A stretch of 35,843 nt of DNA from Clostridia bacterium (GCA_045578225.1 JAZNJV010000030.1:1-35843); one strand, 5' to 3'. Shown: positions 13,130-31,757, counted from the stretch's first letter. Numbers and translations are program-made. The notes: generated by a model not told the origin, from the sequence alone.

Positions 13130-14485
13130 ATGACAAATTTTAAAGTAGGCTATGCATCCGTAAACGTCAATCCCCCGCTCGGCATTGCCATGCACGGCTA
13201 TTATGTGCCGCGCTTTGCGAAGGGGTTTTTAGATGACCTTGCGGCATCCGCACTTGCCATTTCAAAAAACGGCACAGATATTCTTCTCATGAGCGTTGAC
13301 CAATGCCTTATACAAACCGAGCTTTGCGACCGTTACCTTGCCGCGATTTCCAAAGCCACGGGTACCCCAAAAGAAAACATTTTCCTTTCCTGCACGCATA
13401 CGCATACAGGGCCAAACATCACGCCCGATGCGATGTTTGAAGCGGACGAGGCCCCGATTCGTTGGCATGCGGACTTTTTAAAGCAGAGACTCTGTGACGT
13501 GGCAACGCTTGCACTCGCCGACAGAAAGAACGCCAAGATGGCGTTTATCGAAGGGGAAGCGCCATCTCGCATTGCCTACATTCGGCGCTACCGCATGAAG
13601 GACGGCTCGGTGATGACCTGCCCGCCTGTAGGGGACGAAAATATCGACCACCCCATTGGTACGCTTGACCAGCGCGTAAACATCCTTCGCTTTGACAGAG
13701 AAGGTGCGGAAAGCATTGTCCTTTTAAACTACGGCATTCACGCCGACACGATTGGCGGCGAGCTGATCTCCTCCGACTTTGTGGGGCATCTTCGCCGCAC
13801 GGTGGAAAAGGCGCTCGACGGCACAAAATGCATGTTCTTCCCCGGTGCGCAAGGGGACGTGGGCAGCACGCATGTGTTCCCCGAAGGGGGCGACATGAAT
13901 GACACGGAAATCAGCTTTGACAACGAAATGAAGAGCCCCGGCATGGCGCGATTTGTAGGGCGCGCGCTCGCGGGCGTGGTGCTCGAGGTGTATGACAAGG
14001 CAGAATACGTGGATGTGGACGAAATCAAAATGCTCCACGAGGATGTGGCAGTACCCGCTAATCTCCCAAAGCCCGAAGAGCTGCCGCTGGCGCGCAAATA
14101 TAAAGAACTGCATGACAGAGGCCGCGACGATGAAATTCCGTATTCCGCCATGGAGCTTACCACGGTGGTAGCGGAAGCTGTTCGTATGTGCGAGCTTGCA
14201 AACGGTCCCGACGAATTCCATCTTCCAATGTGCGGCGTAAAAATAGGCCCTGTGGCGCTTATCGGCATTCCGGGCGAGCCGTTTACGGATATCGGCGTCG
14301 GCATCAAGGATACCGCCGGCCATCGCATGATTTTGCCGTGTGCCCTTGTAAACGGCTCGGGCGGCTACTTCCCGATGGAATCGGCCTTTTTAGAGGGCGG
14401 CTACGAGGCGCGCTCCTCGCGGTATACTGCGGGCGTTGCCGAACGCCTAATCGAAGGCGGCAAGAAGCTTTTAGCAAAATTATAA
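13130..14485 (+). CDS. Neutral/alkaline ceramidase N-terminal-domain-like hydrolase
   Basis: The start is moved to ATG 13130 (MTNFKVGYASV) behind AAAGGAG. VGYASVNVNPPLGIAMHGY and SCTHTHTGPN match the nCDase N-domain pattern (..DITP..G..M.GY.. and GTHTHSGP). There is no signal peptide. At 451 aa it is shorter than classical ceramidases. Confidence 0.65.
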   Translation: MTNFKVGYASVNVNPPLGIAMHGYYVPRFAKGFLDDLAASALAISKNGTDILLMSVDQCLIQTELCDRYLAAISKATGTPKENIFLSCTHTHTGPNITPDAMFEADEAPIRWHADFLKQRLCDVATLALADRKNAKMAFIEGEAPSRIAYIRRYRMKDGSVMTCPPVGDENIDHPIGTLDQRVNILRFDREGAESIVLLNYGIHADTIGGELISSDFVGHLRRTVEKALDGTKCMFFPGAQGDVGSTHVFPEGGDMNDTEISFDNEMKSPGMARFVGRALAGVVLEVYDKAEYVDVDEIKMLHEDVAVPANLPKPEELPLARKYKELHDRGRDDEIPYSAMELTTVVAEAVRMCELANGPDEFHLPMCGVKIGPVALIGIPGEPFTDIGVGIKDTAGHRMILPCALVNGSGGYFPMESAFLEGGYEARSSRYTAGVAERLIEGGKKLLAKL

Positions 14486-14583: not shown

Positions 14584-15600
14584 ATGTACGACAGTATGGC
14601 AAAAGCTGCATATCTGAAAGAAAAACGTTGCCTTTTGGATTTGCACATCCATCTTGACGGGTCACTTTCGCCAAAAACGGCAAAAAAGCTCGCTGCGATG
14701 CAAGGCATCGAAATTCCTCCGTCCGAGGCGGCTCTTTCCAGGTTGCTTTCGGTCTCGCCCTCTTGCCGCGATTTAAACACATATCTTGAAAAGTTCGCCT
14801 TTCCGGCGCGGCTTTTGCAGACGGAAAAGGCGATAACCACGGCCGTTTCCATGCTTCTTTCAGAGCTTTGGGAAGAAGGCGTTTGCTATGCGGAAATCCG
14901 CTTTGCGCCCGGAAAGCATACAGAAAAAGGCCTCTCGCAAAGAGAGGTCATCCGCGCCGCCATACGTGGCCTTTCGGGGCAAAAATGCGGCGGCGGGCTC
15001 ATTTTATGCTGTATGCGCGGGGAAGACACCAAAGAGGCAAACCTTGAAACGGTGCGCGCCGCGGCCGAGTTTTTGGGGGCGGGCGTCGTAGCCTGCGACC
15101 TTGCAGGCGCGGAAGGGTTGTATCCCACAGAAAATTTTGCTGCGGAATTTGCGCTGGCAAAGGCGCTTTCCGTGCCCTTTACCCTGCACGCGGGCGAGGC
15201 CGATGGGCCCGAGAGCGTTCGCACAGCGCTTTCGTTTGGCGCCGCGAGAATCGGCCACGGCGTGCGAAGTGCGGAGGACCCTTCGCTTTTAGAGCTTCTT
15301 AAAGAAAGCGGCACCGTACTCGAAATTTGCCCGACGAGTAATCTCCAAACGAGGGTGTTCCCCTCACTTTCAGATTTTCCCATACGCACGTTTTTGGACG
15401 CGGGCGTAAAATTTACAATTAACACCGATAACACAGCCGTTTCCGCCACTTCTCTCTGTGCGGAATGGGCACACGTGCTTTCTGCATTTCCGCTTTCAGA
15501 CGCGGAAATTTGCCATATTCTTCTTTCTGCGGCCGATGCCGCTTTTTGTACACGGGAGAAAAAAGAACAGCTTCGCGCACACATCCGTGCGGCGTTTTAG
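14584..15600 (+). CDS. add: Adenosine deaminase
   Basis: 338 aa with DLHIHLDGS, FTLHAGEADGP and INTDNTAVS motifs of the adenosine/AMP deaminase family, at housekeeping size. A GAGGGGG SD is present. Confidence 0.9.
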   Translation: MYDSMAKAAYLKEKRCLLDLHIHLDGSLSPKTAKKLAAMQGIEIPPSEAALSRLLSVSPSCRDLNTYLEKFAFPARLLQTEKAITTAVSMLLSELWEEGVCYAEIRFAPGKHTEKGLSQREVIRAAIRGLSGQKCGGGLILCCMRGEDTKEANLETVRAAAEFLGAGVVACDLAGAEGLYPTENFAAEFALAKALSVPFTLHAGEADGPESVRTALSFGAARIGHGVRSAEDPSLLELLKESGTVLEICPTSNLQTRVFPSLSDFPIRTFLDAGVKFTINTDNTAVSATSLCAEWAHVLSAFPLSDAEICHILLSAADAAFCTREKKEQLRAHIRAAF

Positions 15601-15620
15601 AACGGAAAGGAACTACCATC

Positions 15621-18206
15621 ATGAAAAAACTTTTATCTCTTATCCTTATATTTACCCTTCTTTTAGGCGTTTCGGGGGCGGCCGCGCCGCTGTATACCTA
15701 TGAAGAAGTGATTCCGATTTCGGAAAGCATCACCCTTCGCAAGGTGGAGGCTTTCTATTCGGGGCATAACCTTGCCTACTCGGTCATCCGTGCGGACCTT
15801 TCGGATGAAAACACATCGCTCCGCCTTTTAAAAAGCGACAAGGGCGCAACCACGCTCGACACCGTAGGCAATCTTGCAAAAACCGAGGAAAATGTGGTGG
15901 CGGCGCTCAATGCCGACTTTTTCTCGTTCCATAAAGGAAACCAAGGGTTTTCTCTCGGCATCGAGGTCGAGGACGGAACTCTTTTAGCCTCGCCCATAAA
16001 CCCTTCTACCATGGCGACCGTTTCGTATATGGACGATATCCTTTCGATGTCGTACCTTGATTTTCATTGTATGGTTGTCGCCCCGAACTGGCAATATAGC
16101 GAGGTGCGCCACATGAATAAGCACACGGCCTACTACGGCGATATTCTTCTTTATACGAGCGACTTTGCAGACGGCATGTCCCCCGCGCCGGGCGGCGAGG
16201 TGCTTGAAGTTGTGGTAGAGGACGGCAAAATCCGCGAATTTCGCCGAAATATGCCGCCTGTTGCAATTCCGGAAAACGGGTGCGTACTCGTGGTGTCGGA
16301 AGGCGTGAACATGTTCTTTGCCAATAATTTTGCGGTGGGTGACCCCATCCGCTTTGACTACTACATTACCCCGAATGTAAAAGAGGCAGACGTCGCGTTT
16401 GGCGGCGGCGCCATGCTTGTAGAAAACGGGCAGGCGCGCACCACCTTTTCACACACCGTGGACGGGTATAACCCGAGAAGCGCCATCGGCACCGACAAAA
16501 GCGGAAAAACGCTCTACCTTGTCGCAGTGGACGGGCGCCAAAAGGGGAGCCGCGGCATGACGATGGCGGAGCTGGCCCGTCTTATGCAGTCGCTCGGGTG
16601 CCATACGGCGGTAAATCTTGACGGCGGCGGCTCGACGCGTATGCTCGCCTCCACCGTATGGGAAGAGGACATGCACGCCGTGCATGCTCCCACAGAAAAT
16701 CGCCCTGTTATAAACGCCGTGGGTCTTACGTATACGGCCGAGAAAAGCGCGTGCGCCGGTATTCTTTTGGAAAGCGATAAAGCAGCGGTAGGGAAAGGCG
16801 GCTCTGTCGAAATTTCCGCCGCAGCCTATGATGCAAATATGCGCCCCGTAGAAGATGCAGTAACGCTTTCTTCGAAAGATGGGCAAATAGAAAACGGCGT
16901 ATTTACGCCTTCGCACGGGGGCGCGTGCACTGTCGAAGCGACGTGCGGCGGCGTGCGCGAGGAAATTGAAATTTTTGTAGTGGACGAGATTTGCGGCATG
17001 GAAGCGCCGCGCTACCTTCGCCTTTTAAAAGGCGAAACAGCCACGCTCGATTTAGAAGTATATGACAAGGACGGCCACTTCGTGCCGTGCGAAAGCCTTT
17101 TGGGCTTTACCGTTTCTTCTTCCAATCCTTCTGTTGCCTCGTTTGACGGCGAGAAGGTAGTCGCAAACGGAAACGGCACCGCCATTTTATCGGTTTCGAA
17201 GGACGGCGCGATAAGCTATGTCTCCATCGCGGTCGGCCATTATGAAGAGACGGAAACGATGCCCCTTGCCCTTTTAGAGGAAGGTCGGCTCGCCTATGCC
17301 TTTAGCGAAGAAACAGAAAGCGCGCAGCTTTCGCTTTCGAAAACGGCCGTACTCGCAAAAGACGCCAACGTGGTTTCCGTTTCCTTCCGTACGGAAGCAG
17401 ACTTTGCGCACGCCATACACCTTGCACTCACCGATAAAAACGGCGAGGCGCTCCTCGTGCCTTTTACTGGCTCTTTCGAAAAAGGCACATGGCAACAGCT
17501 TTCGGCCTCTATCCCAAAAGAGGCGGCGCGGCCGCTTCGGATAGACGGCATTTGCATTTCGCGCAAAGAAGGGGGAATAGATAGTGGCGAGATTTATTTG
17601 GATGCCCTCACCTACCCCGTAGACACAGCTTTTGCCTTTCCCACAGCGCCGCAAAACGTGTACGCGGTGCCTGCGTCTCTTCCCAAAACAGATTTTGCTG
17701 TGGCCACGAAGGAGGATGGTACTGCGCTTCTGGCAGGCCTTGTAAACGATAAAACCGAAAAAACGCTTTCCGCTTTTGCCGAGCGTGCACTTTTGGAAAG
17801 CGGCCTGCCCTTCTCCGTGCGTGAAGGCGAGAATGCGCTTTATATCACGGCAAATACCGATAAGGGCAGCATTCGCGCAACCGACAAAAACGCCTGGGAC
17901 AAGATAGCAGATGCCATAGAAAAAACAACGAAGCCGAATGTTTTTCTCCTTTGCACTGCGTCTCCCTTTGGGGACGATGCGTTTGAAAATCGCGTCCTTT
18001 GTGATTACCTTGCCTCACTTTCTAAAAATGTGTTTGTCATTTCGCGCGGCGATGGGAATACGGTGAAAAACATCGGCGGCGTATACTACTTTACGGTGGG
18101 CACTTCTTCCCAAGAATCGCTTTCCGCCGCACATATAAAAAGCAAACAGGTGCTTGCCTTTTCGCTCGGCGAAACCCCCTCGTTTGCGTTTCAAAATCTC
18201 TATTAA
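15621..18206 (+). CDS. Secreted phosphodiester glycosidase (NAGPA / uncovering-enzyme-like domain) with Ig-like Big_2 repeats and an unassigned C-terminal region
   Basis: The start is moved to ATG 15621 (MKKLLSLILIFTLLLG signal peptide) behind GGAAAGGAA. RSAIGTDKSGKTLYLVAVDGRQ...MTMAELARLMQSLGCHTAVNLDGGGST is the PF09992-type motif. Big_2-like segments follow (TVSSSNPSVASFDG...GNGTAILSV). Confidence 0.8.
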   Translation: MKKLLSLILIFTLLLGVSGAAAPLYTYEEVIPISESITLRKVEAFYSGHNLAYSVIRADLSDENTSLRLLKSDKGATTLDTVGNLAKTEENVVAALNADFFSFHKGNQGFSLGIEVEDGTLLASPINPSTMATVSYMDDILSMSYLDFHCMVVAPNWQYSEVRHMNKHTAYYGDILLYTSDFADGMSPAPGGEVLEVVVEDGKIREFRRNMPPVAIPENGCVLVVSEGVNMFFANNFAVGDPIRFDYYITPNVKEADVAFGGGAMLVENGQARTTFSHTVDGYNPRSAIGTDKSGKTLYLVAVDGRQKGSRGMTMAELARLMQSLGCHTAVNLDGGGSTRMLASTVWEEDMHAVHAPTENRPVINAVGLTYTAEKSACAGILLESDKAAVGKGGSVEISAAAYDANMRPVEDAVTLSSKDGQIENGVFTPSHGGACTVEATCGGVREEIEIFVVDEICGMEAPRYLRLLKGETATLDLEVYDKDGHFVPCESLLGFTVSSSNPSVASFDGEKVVANGNGTAILSVSKDGAISYVSIAVGHYEETETMPLALLEEGRLAYAFSEETESAQLSLSKTAVLAKDANVVSVSFRTEADFAHAIHLALTDKNGEALLVPFTGSFEKGTWQQLSASIPKEAARPLRIDGICISRKEGGIDSGEIYLDALTYPVDTAFAFPTAPQNVYAVPASLPKTDFAVATKEDGTALLAGLVNDKTEKTLSAFAERALLESGLPFSVREGENALYITANTDKGSIRATDKNAWDKIADAIEKTTKPNVFLLCTASPFGDDAFENRVLCDYLASLSKNVFVISRGDGNTVKNIGGVYYFTVGTSSQESLSAAHIKSKQVLAFSLGETPSFAFQNLY

Positions 18207-18227
18207 AAGAAAAGAGGCGAATATAGA

Positions 18228-19271
18228 ATGCGAAAAAGAAAAACGGAACTTTCTATTTTAAATGTCACGTTTTGTTTTCTCGTCATTTTTATCCACGCCA
18301 TTTCCTATGCCGTGGGTGCGTTCCCCGAAGGCTCCGTGCGCGAGGCGCTTGTCCTTTTGCCATGGCGGCTTTCTTCCTTTGTGGTGCCCGGCTTTTTGCT
18401 TCTTTCCGGCGTAAAGCTGACGCTCACGGGGAAAGATACCGTTTCGTATCCAAAATATATTTGGGGGCGTGTGCGCGGTATTCTTTTGCCGTACACAGCG
18501 GCGTTTTGCCTCTATTTTCTGGCGTTTTTCCTCTTTTACGGCTATCCGCTTTCGCCGCTTTTCATCTTAAAACATTTTGTGCTTGGAAGTCTTTGCTACC
18601 ATCTTTATTTCATTCCCGTGCTTTGTCAGTTTGACCTTCTTTTGCCGCTTTGGAAGCGCCTCCTTCGGGTATCGCCCGCACTCGTCGTACCCGCGGTGCT
18701 TATCCTTACCTGTATTTTCGAAAGCTTTTTGCCGAATATGCTTTCCACAGCGTTCGGCATATCCTTTGTGTATAACGACCGCATTTTTACTTCGTATCTC
18801 GCCTTTTTTGTCATCGGTCTTTACATCGGTAAATTCTACGATGTATTTTGTGATATACTGCGCAAAAATTTCGCGGCTCTCTCCGCGTTCTTTGCGGTGC
18901 TTTGCCTCTTTACGGGGTACGCAAGCCTTCTCGCCTATGGCGGCCGCGCGGCCGTGCCGTATATGAACATACTGCACTTTGTATATTCTCTCTATGCGAT
19001 TTTGTTCCTGTTTGCCCTCTCCCTTGTCCTGCCCGAGGGTATTTTCGAAAAAGTGCCGCTACTTCGGAAAATCGACAGCGCAAGCTACCACATTTATCTC
19101 TACCATGTTTTGTGCCTCTATGCGGTGGATTTTCTCCTCAAGCGTCTCGGCATTGTAGCTGCACTTCCCGCTTTTCTCCTTCGCTTTGGCATTACCGCCT
19201 CGGTCGTCCCTGCGCTTTGTATTTTTTATCTTTCGCTGAAAAAGAAAGTAACAAAAAGCACTTCCAAATAG
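18228..19271 (+). CDS. Membrane acyltransferase, Acyltransferase_3 family (O-acyltransferase-like)
   Basis: 347 aa with about 10 predicted TM helices. The N-terminal LNVTFCFLVIFIHAISY (conserved His) is typical of PF01757. An AAGAGG SD is present. The gene starts 21 nt after the upstream gene. Confidence 0.7.
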   Translation: MRKRKTELSILNVTFCFLVIFIHAISYAVGAFPEGSVREALVLLPWRLSSFVVPGFLLLSGVKLTLTGKDTVSYPKYIWGRVRGILLPYTAAFCLYFLAFFLFYGYPLSPLFILKHFVLGSLCYHLYFIPVLCQFDLLLPLWKRLLRVSPALVVPAVLILTCIFESFLPNMLSTAFGISFVYNDRIFTSYLAFFVIGLYIGKFYDVFCDILRKNFAALSAFFAVLCLFTGYASLLAYGGRAAVPYMNILHFVYSLYAILFLFALSLVLPEGIFEKVPLLRKIDSASYHIYLYHVLCLYAVDFLLKRLGIVAALPAFLLRFGITASVVPALCIFYLSLKKKVTKSTSK

Positions 19272-19295: not shown

Positions 19296-19715
19296 CTATT
19301 CGAGACTATCGTACCCTTGACAGCCCGCCGCACACAGCGCGAGGCATGCTGCCGTTGTCACAATGAGTGCCAAAAATGCAAGCAGAGCACCTGAAAAGAT
19401 TGCGCCCAAAACGCTGCCTACGGCAAAGGGAATGCCGAGAAGGATAATGGACACGAGGATCGCGCCCAAAATCCCGATGAGAAAAATAGGCAACCCTGCG
19501 CAAACGCAGGCGCGCCATCCGCCCCCGCGCGATGAAAGCGCGGAGAAAAGCGTTAGCGCAAGGTACACCACCGCCACCCCTAAAACAACCCACAAAAATG
19601 CAGGTGTTATGGTAATGACCGCCGTAAACTGCAAAAATGCCGTAATAATGCCAACAATGAGACTTGCTACAATAGCGAGACCGGTGCAACCGGGTCTACA
19701 TCCACAGTTCGTCAT
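19296..19715 (-). CDS. Small Cys-rich 4-TM membrane protein of unknown function
   Basis: The start is moved to ATG 19715 (MTNCGCRPGC) behind GGAGGTGA with 5-6 nt spacing. It is 139 aa with four hydrophobic helices and eight Cys in three clusters (C4/C6/C10, C70/C72, C124/C128/C132). I recognise no family. Confidence 0.7.
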   Translation of the reverse strand: MTNCGCRPGCTGLAIVASLIVGIITAFLQFTAVITITPAFLWVVLGVAVVYLALTLFSALSSRGGGWRACVCAGLPIFLIGILGAILVSIILLGIPFAVGSVLGAIFSGALLAFLALIVTTAACLALCAAGCQGYDSLE

Positions 19716-19813
19716 AATCTTCACCTCCAATGACAATATATGACAAGATTTCAGAAATTGTGACTTTGACCTTCCATTTCTTTGGGAAGAGGGATAGGAA
19801 AAACAGGACAAAG

Positions 19814-19860
19814 AAAAACTGCCCCAGAAGGCAGACCTTCTGGGGCAGTTTTTCTTTTTT
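19814..19860 (-). terminator. Strong rho-independent terminator (bidirectional shape)
   Basis: Perfect 13-bp stem CTGCCCCAGAAGG/CCTTCTGGGGCAG (19819..19848) with a 4-nt loop, flanked by an A-run and a long T-run. It begins immediately after the stop of ORF 19862..20167. Confidence 0.9.
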
Positions 19861-19861
19861 G

Positions 19862-20167
19862 TTATCGTGCTAAATACTTGTCATAAAAAGTCAAATACGG
19901 CGCACCGTTTGTCCCGTCCATACGCAAATACTGTGGAGCATCCTTTTCAAAAACCACTTGCTCCATTACGGGCAAATATACGGCGTTCATGATAAGCCGT
20001 GCAATGTCACGCCGTTTTGCATAGTCTGTACTCACAAAGCTGACAGCCCGTGTCAGCCCGATATCCTCGGCCACCTTCAAATAGCCTCCCGGATATCCCC
20101 CCGTTTCTTCTGCCAAGGGTGCATATCCCAAAGCCGAAACAAGCACAGCGTTTTTAAGCCAATACAT
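19862..20167 (-). pseudogene. 101-codon ORF resembling the tail of an SLH / cell-wall-binding-type protein; possible gene remnant
   Basis: ALGYAPLAEETGGYPGGYLKVAEDIGLTRAV...AKRRDIARLIMNAVYLP resembles an SLH-type repeat. No SD precedes the ATG, and an in-frame TAA lies about 10 codons upstream. Its GC matches the flanking chromosome rather than the adjacent AT-rich cassette. Confidence 0.35.
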
Positions 20168-20259
20168 ACATTCAAAATTATTCCGCGAACAATTTTAGTA
20201 TAGTATGTTGTAGATTGTGTAAGGCTTCGCATGGGTTTTTGTTTTCACTTTGCTACTGC

Positions 20260-21213
20260 TTAATTAACATCTTCTACACTTAGCAGTTTCCCATTTAGCA
20301 TATCTATGTGCACCAGAACATTTTTTCCGCCGGCAACACAGTGAATATGCAAAACACCGTTTTCGTCAAGCCTTGGGGGAATATCTGCAACGGTTGTATC
20401 CATTCCGGTTATGGTTTTTCTGTTTAAGAAAAAATCTGCACCCGTAAGAGGAATGCTATATTTTTTCTCCGCCTCGCCTCTCGCCTTATACCGAAACTCA
20501 AAAAAATAGCTATGTGTAGCAAGCGGATATCCCGCATATGCATTTTCGGAATACACATATTCCAGATTGTTAAGCCCGCGTGTGGGATCAAGATACCCCA
20601 GTTTCTCGCTCTGTTCCTTATCAATAACCGGGCGATTGGGGTTCGTTGTGTCGATTGAAAGCCCTTTTTCTTCTGAAAAATCAAGCTTCCAATCCAGCAT
20701 TTCGCAAGCAATATCATAGGACATTGGCAAATACAAAACATTTCTGAAATTAACTACCGGATACGTCCTCGCGGTATTTTTTATATCGTCCACCGTATGG
20801 GTTTTGTTAACCAGGATTATTTCTGGATGAATGACTGCGGTGCTTTTTTTCTGTAACGGGTTTTGCACAGGGTATTCTGCATAGGTGTCCGCATTTCTAT
20901 GGGCAATTCCAATATAGATCTTATTGAAATGCGTTGCATTTTGCGTTCTTCTCTCCTCATAAAACTCTACTCGAAGCCCGGTAAAACAGTTGAGATTATA
21001 GGTAGTTGGGATGTATACTATATTTTTATGAAATAAAAGCGGATATTCTTCGTTTTTTTCCATTTTTATCCCATTAATTGTAACCGGAAATGGTACACCG
21101 GTCACCTCGGCCAGGTTCACCTCTGCACGTGCCGCAAGTGTTACGACCGCAAATGCGCAAGCCGCAATCGCCGAGCCATACTTCAAAATGGCACTTTTAA
21201 GAAATTGTTTCAT
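20260..21213 (-). CDS. Secreted 317-aa protein with two copies of a YP-x3-F-[KR]-N-[IV]-x-Y-[IL]-P module; unknown function
   Basis: ATG 21213 lies behind a perfect AAAGGAG SD (9-nt spacing) inside the last 17 nt of agrB. It has a signal peptide MKQFLKSAILKYGSAIAACAFAVVTLAARA/EV, an intact frame, and AT-rich codon usage like the kinase gene. Confidence 0.8.
   Translation of the reverse strand: MKQFLKSAILKYGSAIAACAFAVVTLAARAEVNLAEVTGVPFPVTINGIKMEKNEEYPLLFHKNIVYIPTTYNLNCFTGLRVEFYEERRTQNATHFNKIYIGIAHRNADTYAEYPVQNPLQKKSTAVIHPEIILVNKTHTVDDIKNTARTYPVVNFRNVLYLPMSYDIACEMLDWKLDFSEEKGLSIDTTNPNRPVIDKEQSEKLGYLDPTRGLNNLEYVYSENAYAGYPLATHSYFFEFRYKARGEAEKKYSIPLTGADFFLNRKTITGMDTTVADIPPRLDENGVLHIHCVAGGKNVLVHIDMLNGKLLSVEDVN
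20677..21084 (-). repeat. Intragenic duplicated ~45-aa module (aa 44-84 and aa 132-179 of the 317-aa protein)
   Basis: YPLLFHKNIVYIPTTYNLNCFTGLRVEF aligns by eye with YPVVNFRNVLYLPMSYDIACEMLDWKLDF. Each copy is preceded by an (I/V)-x-(I/V)-N-(G/K) strand. Confidence 0.6.
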
Positions 21214-21802
21214 CCGTTTCAGCTCCTTTCACTTTATTTTTTACAAAAGCCGCCAGCATAGAACCTGCCGCAGCAAATTGCCCGAGAGAGAGTGCAAATA
21301 TGTAACAGTTTTCCCATTTCCAACCCATTCCGATCAGTACTATCAATGCCTCTGTCCACATTATTTTTATGCTTATTCTTCGGTAAGCTTTCTTCTCTTC
21401 CGAGTTCACGGTTTTGTTTTTATGAATAATGGGTGCAAGCTTCCAAACCATACACATTGTAAATATGAGTGAAATAACTTCCACCGCGATATAGAATGCA
21501 CTGGGTACAAATTCCAGAACCGCCGTGAACACGCCATATACAAAGAGTAAAATCAAATAACATCGTGTGCGCGAATCCGCATGATATCCCCCGGCATAAA
21601 TTCGAAGCGGAAGAAACGCTGTTAAAAAGAGAAGCGTATGGAGAAAATTTCCTACAAAAACTGCAAAAATTAAAACACTTGCAAACTCCAGTCCTGCCAA
21701 AAGCATAAGTTCCAGTCCGTAACTACAAACTTCCGCTTCCTTTGTTTCGATAATACCGCCCTTCGCTAATGCCGCAGAAAACGCATCTGTAATTTTTTTC
21801 AC
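21197..21802 (-). CDS. agrB: AgrB-family accessory gene regulator B (cyclic-peptide autoinducer processing endopeptidase)
   Basis: 201 aa polytopic protein with a GTG start behind AAGGTGAGGAA. The hallmark RIYAGGYHADSRTRC motif has His74 and Cys81 seven residues apart, the same spacing as the catalytic H77/C84 of S. aureus AgrB. Confidence 0.85.
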   Translation of the reverse strand: MKKITDAFSAALAKGGIIETKEAEVCSYGLELMLLAGLEFASVLIFAVFVGNFLHTLLFLTAFLPLRIYAGGYHADSRTRCYLILLFVYGVFTAVLEFVPSAFYIAVEVISLIFTMCMVWKLAPIIHKNKTVNSEEKKAYRRISIKIMWTEALIVLIGMGWKWENCYIFALSLGQFAAAGSMLAAFVKNKVKGAETDETIS

Positions 21803-21825
21803 TTCCTCACCTTCTTTTCAATGGG

Positions 21826-21834
21826 AGTATACCA
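21826..21834 (-). promoter_or_regulatory. TG-extended -10 of the agrB promoter (no recognisable -35)
   Basis: Minus-strand TGGTATACT, 24 nt upstream of the GTG start. The -35 position reads CCCTTT/TCCCTT, which suggests dependence on an activator. Confidence 0.55.
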
Positions 21835-21860
21835 TAAAAAGGAGATAAAAGGGACGTTTT

Positions 21861-21891
21861 GGCACGAAATGCACGCTGCGCGGCACAAAAT
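21861..21891 (-). promoter_or_regulatory. Pair of 10-nt direct repeats with 21-nt periodicity; candidate LytTR response-regulator binding site
   Basis: Minus-strand ATTTTGTGCC (21882..21891) and ATTTCGTGCC (21861..21870) are 9/10 identical, in the same orientation, with starts 21 nt apart. The proximal repeat ends 29 nt upstream of the -10 hexamer. Confidence 0.6.
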
Positions 21892-21895
21892 GCAA

Positions 21896-21936
21896 TAGAA
21901 AAAGCCCGAAGAGTACCTTTCGAAGTACCTTCGAGC
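21896..21936 (-). terminator. Rho-independent terminator after the kinase gene
   Basis: Minus-strand GCTCGAAG-GTAC-ttcgaaag-GTAC-t-CTTCGGGC (12 bp including one G-U pair and one bulge) followed by TTTTTCT. It lies 22 nt after the kinase stop. Confidence 0.65.
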
Positions 21937-21957
21937 CTTGAAAATCAAGAGTTTTGT

Positions 21958-23259
21958 TTAATTTTCAAAGATTTGGAAGAAAAATGTAAACTCTTCTTCC
22001 GTTTGACTAAAACGATGTACATTTTTATAATTAGAAAGTGCCGCTTCTATGTTTTTGACACCAAAACCATGGTTAGCTTTATCCATTTTTGCCGTTTGCA
22101 GAAACTTGGCCTTTTCTTTATTTGCTGAATTTACAATCTTACAAAGCAATGCTCCTTCGGTATAAGCCATTGTTATGCAAATTCTTTTTTCTCTATTCTC
22201 TACCTGTTCACAAGCCTCTATGCAATTATCCAATGCATTCCCAAAAATAACACAACTATCTATGGCATCTATAAATACATTTTCGGGTATTTGCAGTTGC
22301 GCCTCGAAAATTATTCCTTTACTTATAGCAATGCTTCTTTTTGTGTTTAAAATAGCATCTAAAGCTATATTCCCCGTTTCTATCACATCTTTAGACAATC
22401 CAGTTATACTACGCATATTTTGCAGATATTTAAGGCCACCTTCAAAATCCTGGTTTTCAAAATATCCCCTTAGGGAAATATCGTGATTCTTTAAATCATG
22501 ACGAAGTTTTTTCATTTCTTTTTGCGTAATCAAAATTTCATCCACATGCTTAGCCTGCGCCTTAATTTGTTGCCTAAGTATTTCTTGATTTTGTTCCTCA
22601 ACCGCTTGTTCTATTGTTTTTTCATAGAGGTACAGAGAAAAAAACATTGTATAGAGAAGACCCACTGCACATCCCACAGCCAAATAATTATAAATATCTG
22701 GCGCTGTACTGTAATACTGTAATGTGTATAACAGATAAATCGCAAGAGTCGAAGTTGCAAATATTGAAAAGAATAATACCCAATAGGATGTTTTCATTGC
22801 AAACCCTTGATTGGCTTTTTGTTTTACGCTTATGCCTTTTATAATTATAAACGCAAATGCTTTTGAAAGAATCGTTCCCAATATGCTGTATATTTCTACA
22901 TTGGTTACTTCCATTACTGTTGCGTCCAAAAGAATCGTTAAACCAAACAAAGTGGCAACCTCTGTTATAGCAAAAATTGTTGTTAAAATTACAGCGATCA
23001 TAACACTGGTCTTAAAGCGTTTGCAAAACAGCAATGCAACCATAAAATTAAATATCGTAAGTAGTACAACATTAAAATATCCAAGATGGAACAACCAATT
23101 ACTAAAACCTATTAATCCTGCCAAAACAAAAACAGAAATCACATGTACATAAACCGCTCGTTTTCTGCCGTTTTCTTCTGCATATGTACTTGCGAACATT
23201 ACGGTAATAATTGCTTCAAAAATTGTAGTTAAATATTTTACTGCCACCTCCATTGTCAT
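21958..23259 (-). CDS. AgrC-like sensor histidine kinase (6-7 TM sensor + HPK10/GHKL ATPase)
   Basis: 433 aa. The N-terminal half is polytopic. It has an H-box LRHDLKNH, an N-box NALDNCIEA and a G-box NHGFGVKNI. There is an ATGA overlap with the regulator gene. The sequence is very AT-rich. Confidence 0.85.
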   Translation of the reverse strand: MTMEVAVKYLTTIFEAIITVMFASTYAEENGRKRAVYVHVISVFVLAGLIGFSNWLFHLGYFNVVLLTIFNFMVALLFCKRFKTSVMIAVILTTIFAITEVATLFGLTILLDATVMEVTNVEIYSILGTILSKAFAFIIIKGISVKQKANQGFAMKTSYWVLFFSIFATSTLAIYLLYTLQYYSTAPDIYNYLAVGCAVGLLYTMFFSLYLYEKTIEQAVEEQNQEILRQQIKAQAKHVDEILITQKEMKKLRHDLKNHDISLRGYFENQDFEGGLKYLQNMRSITGLSKDVIETGNIALDAILNTKRSIAISKGIIFEAQLQIPENVFIDAIDSCVIFGNALDNCIEACEQVENREKRICITMAYTEGALLCKIVNSANKEKAKFLQTAKMDKANHGFGVKNIEAALSNYKNVHRFSQTEEEFTFFFQIFEN

Positions 23260-23972
23260 AAGAGATACTTCCTTTCTCCGAAATTAGCAAAACTGTCTAA
23301 AAATTCTTTTTTATACATTCGACTTATGGGTAGCGGCTTATCGTATCCATGTAATATAAGTTCTGTATTTCCAACTTGATACACAAAATTCATATTAATT
23401 ACAAACGCACGATGGACACGGCAAAACCGGTTTTTATCTATACTCTCCAAAAGTGCATCCATGGTTTTGCGAATTTTGTGTGTGCCGCCATCCTTCTTAT
23501 GTATAAGCACCCAATGTCCCCGGCTTTCAAAGAAGAGAATATCGTCGCAAAAAAGCCTGATGCGCACCTTGTTTTCATGAAACAAAAAGGCGCCCGGCGC
23601 ATCCGAAAGCTTAATGCAAATTTCCTTGTATACCGTTTGAAGTGCCTCTTCCGTTACGGGTTTTACCAAAAAACGAAAGGGCTGACAGACAAAGCTTCGT
23701 TGCATATGCCTTGTATGATTCGTAACGAATATAATTAACACTTGGGTATCCGTTGCACGAATTTGATTTGCAACTTCTATACCATCCATCCCCTCCATCT
23801 CAATATCCAGAAAAACGGCATCAAAACCTCCATTCCCTCGTGCATATACCGAGAGAAGTGCTTCTCCACTTTGAAAGGTTTCTATTCTATCGTTTTCGCC
23901 TTGCTTTTTGTGTAATCCCCGTTCCAAAATCTCCAAACATTCCCTATTGTCATCACATATTGCAATTCTCAT
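23256..23972 (-). CDS. LytTR-family response regulator (AgrA-like)
   Basis: The start is moved to ATG 23972 (MRIAICDDN). The receiver domain has DAVFLDIEMEGMDG. The C-terminal LytTR domain has ILFFESRGHWVLIH...FCRVHRAFVINMNFV. Confidence 0.9.
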   Translation of the reverse strand: MRIAICDDNRECLEILERGLHKKQGENDRIETFQSGEALLSVYARGNGGFDAVFLDIEMEGMDGIEVANQIRATDTQVLIIFVTNHTRHMQRSFVCQPFRFLVKPVTEEALQTVYKEICIKLSDAPGAFLFHENKVRIRLFCDDILFFESRGHWVLIHKKDGGTHKIRKTMDALLESIDKNRFCRVHRAFVINMNFVYQVGNTELILHGYDKPLPISRMYKKEFLDSFANFGERKYLL

Positions 23973-24169
23973 GTTGTCACCTGCTTTCACCGGAAGTATT
24001 ACGCATGGCATGCACAAACTACACCCTGTTTTTAACTAAATGCTTGTAAATAAAAATCATCCTGCTATCTTGCCTTTATTGCCATTGCGGAACATCTGTT
24101 TCCTACAGTCTCCACCCATCGCGGATAAAGTCAGAGCACGCAACCTAGGGGCGCCTTTTTGATGAGGTC

Positions 24170-24198
24170 ATTATACCAAAAAATCCCGTAAAAAGCAA
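24170..24198 (-). promoter_or_regulatory. Candidate promoter of the regulator-kinase operon
   Basis: Minus-strand reading: -35 TTGCTT (24193..24198), 17-nt spacer, TG-extended -10 TGGTATAAT (hexamer 24170..24175). This implies a leader of about 190 nt before ATG 23972. Confidence 0.5.
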
Positions 24199-24199
24199 C

Positions 24200-24254
24200 A
24201 ATAAATCCCCCGTGAAATGAACTGCACCAGTTTGTACAGTTCATTTCACTGGGG
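24200..24254 (-). terminator. Rho-independent terminator of uxaC
   Basis: 13-bp perfect stem GTGAAATGAACTG/CAGTTCATTTCAC (24212..24249), extendable by CCCC/GGGG, with a 12-nt loop. The downstream tract on the minus strand is T-rich (ATTTATTGTTGCTTTTT). Confidence 0.75.
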
Positions 24255-24268
24255 ATATTTATTACTTC

Positions 24269-25663
24269 TTAGAAGTTAAAAAAGTTTTTGGCGTTGTGGT
24301 AACAAATACCCGTGATAATTTCGCCGAGTGCTTCATAATCTTCCGGATACTCGCCGTTTTCTACCCATTTACCGATGAGGTTACAGAGAATACGGCGGAA
24401 GTATTCATGGCGCGGGTAGGACATGAAGCTGCGCGAGTCCGTAAGCATACCTACGAAGCGGCCGAGAAGACCGAGGTTTGCAAGGGCGCGCATTTGCTGT
24501 TCCATACCGTCACGCTGGTCATTGAACCACCAGCCCGAGCCGAACTGGATTTTGCTCGGTGCCTCGGCGGACTGGAAGTTCCCGAGCATGGTGCCGAGCA
24601 CGTAATTATCCTTCGGGTTTAGTGTGTAGAGAATCGTTTTCGGGAGTTTTTCGTTCTCTTCACAGGCATTTAAAAGCGCGGCAAGCGGTGCGGCAATGCT
24701 CTTATCGTCGATAGAGTCAAACCCTGTATCGGGGCCGAGCTTTTTGTACATACGGCTGTTGTTGTTGCGAAGGGCGCCGATGTGCAGCTGCATCGTCCAG
24801 CCTCTCTTATGGTATTCGGCGGCGAAGAAGAGGAGCATGTATGTCTTGAAGGCATTGACTTCGTCCTCTGTCAGTTCTGCGCCCGAAAGAGCCTTCAGGA
24901 ATGCGGCATTTGCCTCTTCCTTATTCGTCTTCTTATACGGAACGCCGGCGAGGGCATGGTCCGAAAGGCGGCAGCCTACGCTATCGAAAAATTCGATTCT
25001 CTCACGAAGGGCATCAAGGAGTGCATCAATATCGGTAAATTCCTTACCCACAAGTGCGGAGAGGTCCTTCATATACGGCACAAAGGTTTCCTGTTCACAA
25101 TTTACCGCCTTGTCGGGACGGAAGGTGGGCAGAACCTTTACCTTGTTTTGCTTTTGGAGTTCGATGTGGTATTCGAGCGTATCAATCGGGTCATCCGTGG
25201 TGCAGATGATTTCTACATTCGAGCGCTCGATAAGGCGCTGTGCGGAAAAATCGGCAGAGGCAATCATCGCGTTCGCTCTGTCATAAATAGAGCGGGCCGA
25301 CTTTTCATTTAAAATTTCTGTGATGCCGAAAAAGCGCTGAAGCTCTAAATGCGTCCAGTGATATAAGGGGTTACCCACGGCATATTTCAGCGTTTTGGCA
25401 AAGGCTTCGAACTTTTCAAAGTCCGATTTGTCCCCCGTCATATAGTCTTCCGGAATGCCGTTTGAGCGCATGGCGCGCCACTTATAATGGTCACCGCCGA
25501 GCATAATCTCGGTAATCGAAGAAAAACGTCTGTCCTCACAGATTTCCTTCGGGTTTAAGTGACAGTGATAGTCAATAATCGGCATCTTGGCCGCGTAATC
25601 GTGATAGAGCTTTTTTGCGACCTCAGTTTCGAGCATAAAGTCTTTATCCATAAATGCTTTCAT
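24269..25663 (-). CDS. uxaC: Glucuronate isomerase
   Basis: 464 aa. MPIIDYHCHLNPKEI and the overall size and sequence are typical of UxaC. An AAAGGGGA SD is present. Confidence 0.9.
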   Translation of the reverse strand: MKAFMDKDFMLETEVAKKLYHDYAAKMPIIDYHCHLNPKEICEDRRFSSITEIMLGGDHYKWRAMRSNGIPEDYMTGDKSDFEKFEAFAKTLKYAVGNPLYHWTHLELQRFFGITEILNEKSARSIYDRANAMIASADFSAQRLIERSNVEIICTTDDPIDTLEYHIELQKQNKVKVLPTFRPDKAVNCEQETFVPYMKDLSALVGKEFTDIDALLDALRERIEFFDSVGCRLSDHALAGVPYKKTNKEEANAAFLKALSGAELTEDEVNAFKTYMLLFFAAEYHKRGWTMQLHIGALRNNNSRMYKKLGPDTGFDSIDDKSIAAPLAALLNACEENEKLPKTILYTLNPKDNYVLGTMLGNFQSAEAPSKIQFGSGWWFNDQRDGMEQQMRALANLGLLGRFVGMLTDSRSFMSYPRHEYFRRILCNLIGKWVENGEYPEDYEALGEIITGICYHNAKNFFNF

Positions 25664-30374: not shown

Positions 30375-31757
30375 TTAAAATCCTATGGCAAATATTTCGG
30401 CATCCTGCATTTCCATTTCAATGGTCACTTCTCTTCCTTCGAAAACGGAAAGCGGCGTGTCGAACAGCACCTCGCGGCGGACGTTGTTGCCAAATACGTC
30501 ACAGCTCCGAGCCACGGTTTCGCCGTCCGTAATTTTGATGCGAATGGTGCCTGCGGCGCTTGTGCGGAAATTCAGGAAGAACTTGTCGCTTCCCAAAAGG
30601 AGCGGTTTTGTGACGAGCATAGCTTTTTCCCAGCCGCTCTTAAACGAGGCAAACCCATCGCGACGAATCGCGTAGCGCACAACGCCCGTATAGTCCCCGT
30701 CCCACGAGGAATCACACCCGAACATGCTGATTTCCGTCTCGTCCACAATATAGCCTTGGCTAAAATACCCGTCGCCGTATTTCCACGTAAGCGGTGCTTC
30801 GTAGTCACCGTCGGATACTGCTTCGTTAAATTTATGCCAGTGCAGCCCGTCGCGCGAGGTCATAAAGAGCGTATCGGTAAGCGTGGTACCAAAGCGCGGA
30901 TGCATTTCAAACCGCCACTTTCGGGATTCTAAATCCGGCAGCACATCAAACGAAGGGGACCAAATTTCGGCGCGGTCATTATACCGCACGGGAAGCCCCG
31001 TAAAAATATGCGGCGCGCCGGGGTATCTTTGCACATTGTTCGTGTAAAGGGCAAACTTTTCTTCATCATCAAACTGAATAAAGCCGTGCTTTTCCCAGTG
31101 TTTATAGTCTTTCGAGGTCATAAGCTTTATGTGCCTTCTGCCTTCGTCAAAGTCGCGGTAGAAAAGCTTATACTCGCGGTCAATTTCATCCCAGTACACG
31201 GTATTCAGAGAGTCAAACTTGCCCGGCTCCTTGGCGATGTTTTCCACTCTTTTAAAGTGGATGCCATCGGGGCTTACGAAGGAAGCAAGCGTGCCACCTT
31301 CTACGAATACCTTGCAGCCGTCCTCCACGCGCATGATGCCCTTGTAGCGGCTCTCAGGCGGGCAGGCGGGATTATCGTCACGAAAGACGCAAAGGCCGCC
31401 GCCGTACGGCTCGGTGGGGTGCGAGAGGATAATATTGTTATCCCCGTAGATGCCGAGAGACGGGAAGTCCCACTTCTTTCCGTCGCGACTCTCGGCGTAG
31501 CAGGTTACGGTGTGGCTTTCGTTAAATTTTCCGGTTTCGGGGTCCTTAAAGCGGTGCCCCGTGCCGTAATACATGCGGTAAATCTCGCCGTCTTTGAAGA
31601 TAACGGGGTAGAATACTTCGCGGCCGTGCGGCATTTTATGTTCAAAAATGGTTTCCTTCTTCTCGATTCGGTTTGCAGAAAGGCGCGCTGTGGTTTTTTC
31701 TTTGTCAATCAGCGAATAGTCCCAAAGCGGCTCTGTTTTTTGACAGGTGTATGCCAT
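30375..31757 (-). CDS. Cytoplasmic beta-propeller glycoside-hydrolase-like protein (Asp-box motifs) with a C-terminal beta-sandwich; family not resolved
   Basis: The start is moved to ATG 31757 (MAYTCQK) behind GAGGAGGAAG; the track start at 31829 lies upstream of the predicted promoter. SRDGKKW and SRDGLHW Asp-box-like motifs and the YYG/FYRD pattern suggest a GH32/43/130-like fold. Confidence 0.7.
   Translation of the reverse strand: MAYTCQKTEPLWDYSLIDKEKTTARLSANRIEKKETIFEHKMPHGREVFYPVIFKDGEIYRMYYGTGHRFKDPETGKFNESHTVTCYAESRDGKKWDFPSLGIYGDNNIILSHPTEPYGGGLCVFRDDNPACPPESRYKGIMRVEDGCKVFVEGGTLASFVSPDGIHFKRVENIAKEPGKFDSLNTVYWDEIDREYKLFYRDFDEGRRHIKLMTSKDYKHWEKHGFIQFDDEEKFALYTNNVQRYPGAPHIFTGLPVRYNDRAEIWSPSFDVLPDLESRKWRFEMHPRFGTTLTDTLFMTSRDGLHWHKFNEAVSDGDYEAPLTWKYGDGYFSQGYIVDETEISMFGCDSSWDGDYTGVVRYAIRRDGFASFKSGWEKAMLVTKPLLLGSDKFFLNFRTSAAGTIRIKITDGETVARSCDVFGNNVRREVLFDTPLSVFEGREVTIEMEMQDAEIFAIGF

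Follow-up and report, generated by a model that had tools for sequence, protein, structure and literature searches.

Which gene stands in the agrD position of an agr-type quorum-sensing cassette when AgrB, the sensor kinase and the response regulator are all intact? The question is raised by a 35,843-nucleotide (nt) stretch of DNA from a Clostridia bacterium (GCA_045578225.1, JAZNJV010000030.1:1-35843; the window, meaning throughout the whole stretch that was analysed). Its minus strand carries, in this order, a regulator–kinase operon, a terminator, a promoter, agrB and a 317-codon open reading frame (ORF). An earlier note on this DNA had described an agr-type cassette with no recognisable AgrD and a secreted 317-amino-acid (aa) protein in its place, and had suggested, as one of two alternatives, this protein as a non-canonical partner or substrate of AgrB. 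By alignment with related loci, the N-terminus of the 317-aa ORF is the leader of agrD. The best explanation of the locus, to which we assign a probability of roughly 85%, is a canonical clostridial agr locus that was rearranged, such that the agrD core was lost and the leader became fused in frame to an unrelated secreted protein. The arrangement described in the note is real, and it is explained by rearrangement rather than by a new kind of AgrB partnership.

Results

To compare the long ORF with agrD, we aligned the window with related agr loci. The DNA alignment showed an unbroken stretch of homology that takes in the 3' end of agrB, the Shine–Dalgarno sequence (SD), the start codon and the codons up to 28 of the ORF, which begins with an ATG 17 nt inside agrB and is preceded by AAAGGAG. 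Residues 1–28 are 79–86% identical to the leaders of the 53-aa AgrD proteins of four relatives (L002–L004 and L103), and the corresponding codons are 88% identical at the nucleotide level (tblastn E 1.5e-11). The start position, the SD and the 17-nt overlap with agrB are also those of the relatives' agrD. The statement that the ORF does not resemble AgrD therefore does not hold for its first 28 residues, and the cleavable-looking signal peptide previously ascribed to it is the agrD leader. The AgrD leaders of this clade are themselves signal-peptide-like, so that a signal peptide of other origin might resemble one by chance; given the identity over 28 codons and its continuity with agrB, SD and start codon, and given that the signal peptides of true members of the secreted-protein family described below are unrelated in sequence, we regard a chance resemblance as having almost no likelihood.

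Homology to agrD ends abruptly after codon 28, between positions 21130 and 21129. Beyond this breakpoint the relatives go on with AAYTCTKCKTGT (N-S-x-C) and the window with CGTGCAGAGGTG; at the protein level, residue 28 is followed by RAEVNLAEVTGVPF in the window and by NS(S/A)Cxxx(F/Y)YEPEEPxGLxKFKKFN in the relatives. The 317-aa ORF has neither the Cys ring nor the acidic follower EEPxGLxKFKKFN, and it does not classify as an AgrD, a class defined by a length of 40–60 aa, by a Cys or Ser in the ring that lies five residues ahead of the cleavage site, and by an acidic follower that AgrB recognises. All that the cassette retains of an AgrD precursor is the leader, codons 1–28; it contains no core for an autoinducing peptide (AIP) and no follower.

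We also searched for a small agrD elsewhere in the cassette. AgrD profiles from Pfam and NCBIfam gave no match at E ≤ 10 among the 56 ORFs of 20–100 aa in positions 19800–24400 or in the first 50 residues of the long ORF, in agreement with the earlier hand scan of the intergenic gaps. As the leader in the long ORF was missed as well, these profiles are too weak for this clade. Homology searches of the 35.8-kb window likewise found no remnant of an AgrD core or tail and no second agrD. Two candidates were rejected: a weak agrD match at 30480–30599 (E 0.033), considered a chance hit and antisense to a 484-aa gene, and a 49-aa ORF in the gap between the kinase gene and agrB (21799–21948), which spans the terminator and the promoter, has no SD and matches no AgrD profile. 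With core and follower absent, the cassette holds no functional agrD, and the earlier proposal that the precursor is encoded elsewhere stands for the case that any AIP is sensed at all.

The relatives show what the locus would ordinarily contain. The six closest AgrB homologues, 52–64% identical to that of the window, were looked at in 11 contigs (P0004, P0007 and P0010, with P0008, P0009 and P0005 in eight further contigs), and all have the order regulator, kinase, AgrB and then a 53-aa AgrD, for example MKKFLKNAILKYGSAIAACAFAFVTLAS-NSSCWAAYY-EPEEPVGLDKFKKFNR. The gene order and all of the signals of the window match those of these 11 contigs. In L002, L004, L101 and L102 the 53-aa ORF starts 17 nt inside agrB, exactly as the long ORF does. 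AgrD proteins of the same type, 51–57 aa in length, were found in about 17 more genome loci of the AgrB clade and in 10 metagenome loci recovered by a search with the leader alone. Their consensus consists of a leader ending in KYGxxIAxCAFAFVxIxA, a core N-S/T-S-C-x-x-P-F/Y and a follower YEPEEPxGLxxFKKFN. The fusion is present in none of the approximately 38 related agr contigs or loci, all of which have a normal small AgrD.

This AgrD type (L002–L023 and L088–L103) comes from metagenome-assembled genomes (MAGs) of uncultured Clostridia, at least some of them from human gut metagenomes. In L003 and L004, for which annotation was displayed, the called AgrD ORFs have no Pfam match on record. 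Three loci of the same AgrB clade (L012, L017 and L020) have no obvious AgrD of 50–57 aa directly after agrB: in L012 the position is taken by nothing longer than a 33-aa ORF, in L017 by an 846-aa ORF without AgrD-like sequence, and in L020 by a response regulator gene that comes straight after agrB. Here, too, agr loci may have degenerated or be organised in another way.

The signals that control the cassette are also those of its relatives. After the kinase gene, a terminator hairpin followed by a T-run folds with a free energy of −21.4 kcal/mol (z −4.97; 0 of 200 shuffled sequences folded as well), and a hairpin occupies this place in the relatives too, with a stem that differs in sequence. 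The region between this terminator and agrB is conserved as well. It contains two direct repeats of 12 bp, GCATTT(T/C)GTGCC, at 21882–21893 and 21861–21872 (21 bp from start to start), which are kept in L002, L003 and L004, that is, in four loci with the window, upstream of an extended −10 element. Paired direct repeats about two helical turns apart are the usual architecture of LytTR and AgrA sites, and we consider these repeats to be candidate binding boxes of the LytTR regulator at the agrB–agrD promoter. A third exact copy of the box (13820–13831) was set aside, being unpaired and inside coding sequence. The extended −10 block TATGGTATACT is conserved in the relatives, in line with the separate agrB promoter that had been proposed; a simple promoter scan did not list the agrB −10. 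The SD and the start codon of the long ORF are shared with the relatives' agrD in the same way, and the chimeric gene thus has the promoter, SD, start codon and leader of agrD. Translational coupling to agrB and a perfect SD are indeed present, as the earlier note had observed, but because they were inherited from agrD they are no evidence of a new partnership.

Upstream of the regulator gene, at 23973–24268 on the minus strand, we noted by eye an extended −10-like element, TGGTATAAT, near 24180. It was not listed by the simple promoter scan. It would leave the regulator–kinase operon with a 5' leader of about 190 nt without copies of the GCATTTYGTGCC box. This suggests that the operon has a promoter of its own near 24180, without LytTR-type boxes.

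All three protein components other than AgrD are complete. AgrB belongs to the AgrB family by its match to PF04647 (E 2.5e-35) and keeps every position that is invariant across 31 aligned homologues, including R67, G71-G72, Y73, H74, C81, P124 and K130. The spacing of R67, G72, H74 and C81 is that of R70, G75, H77 and C84 of Staphylococcus aureus AgrB, which are functionally required (PMC10196373), so the His/Cys pair had been read correctly. The regulator is of the AgrA type (Response_reg E 4.5e-18, LytTR E 3.7e-15), and the kinase, whose reading frame shares an ATGA with that of the regulator, is of the AgrC type (HATPase_c_5 E 8e-22). The NCBIfam AgrC model gave only a weak match to the kinase (E 1.7e-10, residues 44–415), below its equivalog cut-off; the length and position of the kinase are the same in the relatives.

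An intact AgrB next to a coupled ORF in the agrD slot is what one would expect if the 317-aa protein had replaced AgrD by design, as a substrate or co-evolved output. AgrB, however, recognises the C-terminal follower of AgrD and requires the Cys of the core ring (PMC8251862), and S. aureus AgrD is not cleaved without D33 and E34 of its tail (PMC10196373). As the ring Cys and the acidic EEP follower are both absent from the chimera, AgrB cannot process it in the canonical manner. The arrangement is also unique among the related loci, and the further evidence on this reading comes from the other end of the inserted DNA and from the family of the inserted gene.

At that other end, a 101-aa ORF (19862–20167) without any family match turned out to be spurious. 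Its residues 8–101 correspond, at 86% identity, to the C-terminal 94 residues of a 351-aa S-layer homology (SLH) protein of L004, whose gene lies 3.7 kb downstream of agrD in that relative, and the DNA is 82–88% identical to L004:10391–10672. Homology to L004 resumes sharply at position 20145 and extends past the stop codon to include a terminator that both loci share. The SLH gene is also present in L003 and L101, where it lies farther downstream of agrD. Identity to L004 is highest in the agrD leader and the SLH stub (86% each), followed by the regulator (81.5%), and falls to 65% in the kinase and 52% in AgrB. From this synteny and these identities we deduce that the window is an L004-type locus in which about 3.7 kb was replaced by 984 bp. 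Compared with L004, it has lost agrD codons 29–53, genes for proteins of 162, 189 and 435 aa (the last of them an SLH protein) and codons 1–257 of the gene for the 351-aa SLH protein. The stub and L004 differ with a ratio of nonsynonymous to synonymous substitutions of 0.26 (dN/dS, at dS 0.33), but with 94 codons to compare and a divergence this old, the value is too coarse for dating the replacement.

The uneven identity to L004 resembles the hypervariable agrB–agrD–agrC segment that defines the staphylococcal agr specificity groups. The best match of the window's AgrB is in L002 (64%), another genome, the regulator of which is only 61% identical.

We found neither junction repeats nor mobile-element genes at the junctions. 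A pair of 22-nt repeats (D1, 77% identical) lies inside the segments rather than at the junctions and is probably due to chance. The GC content, about 41%, is continuous over both junctions. These observations bear on the concern that the fusion is an assembly artefact and that the real genome has a normal agrD, a concern prompted by its occurrence on a single contig that, like its closest relatives, is probably metagenome-assembled. Two erroneous joins at a distance of 984 bp would be required, both leading back to the same syntenic locus in the absence of repeats, and the left one would have to fall in frame and recreate a signal-peptide architecture by accident. We judge an artefact improbable.

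The 984-bp segment itself has no homology to the agr loci of the relatives. It brought in a secreted-protein gene without its own promoter, ribosome binding site or start codon and without most of its own signal peptide. A profile search of 1.8 billion representative proteins (clustered at 50%) placed residues 36–317 in a family of proteins of about 310 aa (E 4.8e-166). At E ≤ 1e-3 the search recovered 815 representatives, of which 24 also passed E ≤ 1e-30; word-indexed protein searches for the same fusion returned only one to three homologues. Typical members, of 300–320 aa, have a classical signal peptide of their own followed within about 10 residues by V.VP.F.V.ING. Residues ~36–317 of the chimera align end to end with three of them (P0123, P0124 and P0002) at 39–47% identity, sharing this motif and a twin YP..Y.P.TY. 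The two copies of an internal module reported earlier are confirmed by a YP..(I/V)Y.P..Y motif (with I or V at the variable position) at about residues 57–85 and 151–179, and by the same strand–strand–helix–strand unit at both positions of an AlphaFold model. This model, built from 28 sequences (pLDDT 90.5, pTM 0.82), has a beta-rich body from residue 34; an earlier model from two sequences was unusable (pLDDT 38.5). A fold search of the PDB with the later model gave no match (best E 0.04, TM ~0.2). Neither the window protein nor any of 27 further members of the family matched Pfam at E ≤ 0.1, and NCBIfam has no model for them. Assignment of the internal repeats to the copper amine oxidase N-terminal domain (PF07833, Cu_amine_oxidN1) was rejected for lack of Pfam support.

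None of the five other family members whose surroundings we examined (L001, L085, L086, L087 and a Tepidibacter plasmid copy) adjoins agrB, so that the linkage which the earlier note had proposed to look for by synteny does not exist among them. By these comparisons the family is not an Agr accessory. Together with the truncated SLH gene, which marks an accidental replacement, and with the inherited coupling signals and the missing ring Cys and follower, this leaves very little room for a protein dedicated to AgrB, and we hold that reading to be highly improbable. The mature domain was also not brought next to the leader by a simple deletion from a gene already downstream of agrD: family members occur in 0 relative loci, and the 290-aa gene of L098 is unrelated. 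A mobile origin of the insert gained one weak plasmid match and no phage match. The ~310-aa family is found in Firmicutes. One member, a 711-aa protein in L085 with WG_beta_rep repeats, lies near an extracytoplasmic function (ECF) sigma/anti-sigma pair and a Cu_amine_oxidN1 protein.

The leader of the chimera has a net charge of +3 over residues 1–12. Its hydrophobic core is 12 residues long and has a mean Kyte–Doolittle value of 2.5, and it is modelled as a helix across residues 2–27. The leader/core boundary of the relatives' AgrD, V/L-A-A↓N, is a plausible signal-peptidase site, and the junction falls at the same boundary. The family's cleavage region aligns with A-R-A↓EVNLAEVTGVPF of the window; the chimera thus keeps the c-region and the mature N-terminus of the family, and only the n- and h-regions come from agrD. 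Judged by its positively charged n-region, its hydrophobic h-region and the A-R-A↓E site, the leader looks like a Sec signal peptide, and it probably serves for export of the chimera, with a predicted signal-peptidase site at the junction. The S. aureus AgrD leader is amphipathic (helical moment 1.7) and has a net charge of −1, compared with +3 here.

Table 1 Features of the rearranged agr cassette, in window coordinates
Feature	Position	Strand	Basis
AgrA-like response regulator, 238 aa, receiver and LytTR domains	23256..23972	−	Pfam matches
AgrC-like polytopic histidine kinase, 433 aa	21958..23259	−	HATPase_c_5
Intrinsic terminator downstream of the kinase gene, hairpin at 21904-21936 and T-run	21897..21936	−	Folding
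Two direct repeats GCATTT(T/C)GTGCC, candidate LytTR (AgrA-type) boxes	21861..21893	−	Exact matches
Extended −10 element TGgTATACT of the agrB promoter	21826..21834	−	Read from sequence
Intact AgrB, GTG start, 201 aa	21197..21802	−	PF04647
Chimeric 317-aa ORF, agrD leader and secreted-protein domain	20260..21213	−	Alignments
agrD remnant, start and leader codons 1-28, MKQFLKSAILKYGSAIAACAFAVVTLAA, N-terminus of the 317-aa ORF	21130..21213	−	Homology
Foreign 984-bp segment, 5'-truncated secreted-protein gene (residues 29-317) and 114 nt 3' untranslated	20146..21129	−	No agr-locus homology
SLH-gene 3' remnant, last 94 codons, within spurious 101-aa ORF (19862-20167)	19862..20145	−	L004 homology
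Perfect 22-bp inverted repeat, bidirectional terminator common to L004, lower edge of the low-GC island	19810..19857		Alignment, GC profile

Discussion

We propose that about 3.7 kb of an L004-type locus was swapped for 984 bp of foreign DNA in a single event. The left junction coincides exactly with the leader/core boundary of agrD and keeps the reading frame, giving leader residues 1–28, 'RA↓EV...' and the mature secreted protein; at the right junction a dead 3' stub of the SLH gene is left. As a consequence, the locus would make no pheromone of its own and would encode no substrate for its AgrB. Any AIP to which the kinase and the regulator respond would have to derive from a different agrD, whether elsewhere in this genome or in cells nearby, and the secreted protein would now be an output of the agrBD promoter, translationally coupled to agrB.

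Several points weigh against this reconstruction. Across public collections the fusion occurs in a single contig, without an independent second case, and a search of metagenome contigs turned up no relatives. AgrB, kinase and regulator are fully intact, which is unexpected in a system that has long been dead; their state can be squared with an event of recent date or with ongoing use in which a different agrD takes part. That the chimera is expressed, exported and cleaved is a prediction from its sequence.

Continued use would mean that another agrD, in a second locus or in kin, supplies the AIP, that AgrB processes that precursor and that the chimera is under quorum control. This extends the rearrangement that we favour and does not exclude it. 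The intact AgrB, kinase, regulator and promoter boxes would be accounted for, as would a fusion that is in frame with a good A-x-A site, and a clostridial genome can hold more than one agrBD pair, as does that of Ruminiclostridium cellulolyticum with four (PMC8251862). Within the 35.8-kb window, however, there is no second agrD and no second agrB. AgrB enzymes are, moreover, usually specific for their cognate AgrD, as in the agr groups of S. aureus. We therefore put this forward as a tentative extension that is probably not correct. The chimera itself may be functional, with the AgrD leader co-opted as an export signal, the protein an output of the agr promoter and the cell an AIP non-producer that still listens to its kin or to a second locus; this, too, we consider less likely than not.

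Apart from the lesion, the locus conforms to canonical agr systems of Clostridia and Staphylococcus. It shares with them the catalytic His and Cys and the Arg and Gly of AgrB, the AgrC-type HATPase_c_5 kinase and the LytTR regulator, and also paired direct repeats, here candidate LytTR sites, upstream of the agrB promoter and the coupling of the agrD start to agrB. It differs from them in that agrD is reduced to a leader of 28 codons, without Cys ring or acidic follower. In the window and its relatives the regulator and the kinase form a separate operon before agrBD, whereas S. aureus has a single agrBDCA operon.

Natural agr-defective, signal-negative variants are well known in S. aureus. In these, as here, one agr gene is hit and the rest are intact, and the outcome is a predicted non-producer that possibly responds to the AIP of others; by analogy, the window locus would work like an agr locus with an agrD-null lesion. 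Unlike in those variants, the lesion is a replacement with an in-frame fusion of leader and secreted protein, rather than a point mutation, frameshift or insertion of an insertion sequence, and the host is an uncultured member of the Clostridia. The event also resembles the swapping of signal peptides by illegitimate recombination, in which the n- and h-regions are replaced and the c-region and cleavage site are kept. Here, unlike in ordinary swaps, the leader was donated by AgrD, the ribosomally synthesised precursor of a pheromone. Other members of the ~310-aa family have an ordinary MKK–hydrophobic–AxA signal peptide, and the chimera has an agrD leader instead. We found no description of a fusion between an AgrD leader and another protein in the literature, which is weak evidence of absence.

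If the chimera is functional in the way just outlined, the locus would be a case of natural rewiring of quorum sensing by a single recombination and direct evidence that the AgrD leaders of this clade are Sec-type signal peptides. If the chimera is exported, an AgrD leader alone would suffice to secrete a 30-kDa protein, which bears on how AgrD intermediates cross the membrane. For annotation, an apparent AgrB without AgrD and with a large protein in the AgrD slot resolves to a rearrangement once the N-terminus of the ORF after agrB is compared with the AgrD leaders of relatives, a route that was needed here since profile models missed the leader. For agr biology, the comparison lets one AgrD type of uncultured Clostridia, known from MAGs, be aligned clearly, with a signal-peptide-like leader, A-N-S-S-C-x-x-P-F/Y and YEPEEPxGLxxFKKFN. 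The locus is also a candidate for a natural signal-negative agr variant in a non-pathogen, the significance of which is limited by its single occurrence.

Genomic context

The agr block, the chimeric gene and the SLH stub (19850–24250) form an island of low GC content, 32–44% (about 34% in the kinase gene), between flanks of 47–55%. Its edges are strong terminators at 19810–19857 and ~24200–24260. The flanking genes of the window differ from those of every relative, and the cassette therefore occupies different genomic sites in related genomes. A scan of the window against Rfam matched no RNA family. Just outside the island terminator, at 19296–19811 on the minus strand, is a 171-aa ORF without a family match; its product would be strongly hydrophobic and rich in Cys and Gly, and contains CGCRPGCTGLAIVASLIVGIITAF and AACLALCAAGCQGYD. 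The adjoining genes at 15465–19271 on the plus strand are cell-envelope genes, encoding a 913-aa secreted protein with a NAGPA phosphodiester-glycosidase domain and then an Acyl_transf_3 membrane acyltransferase.

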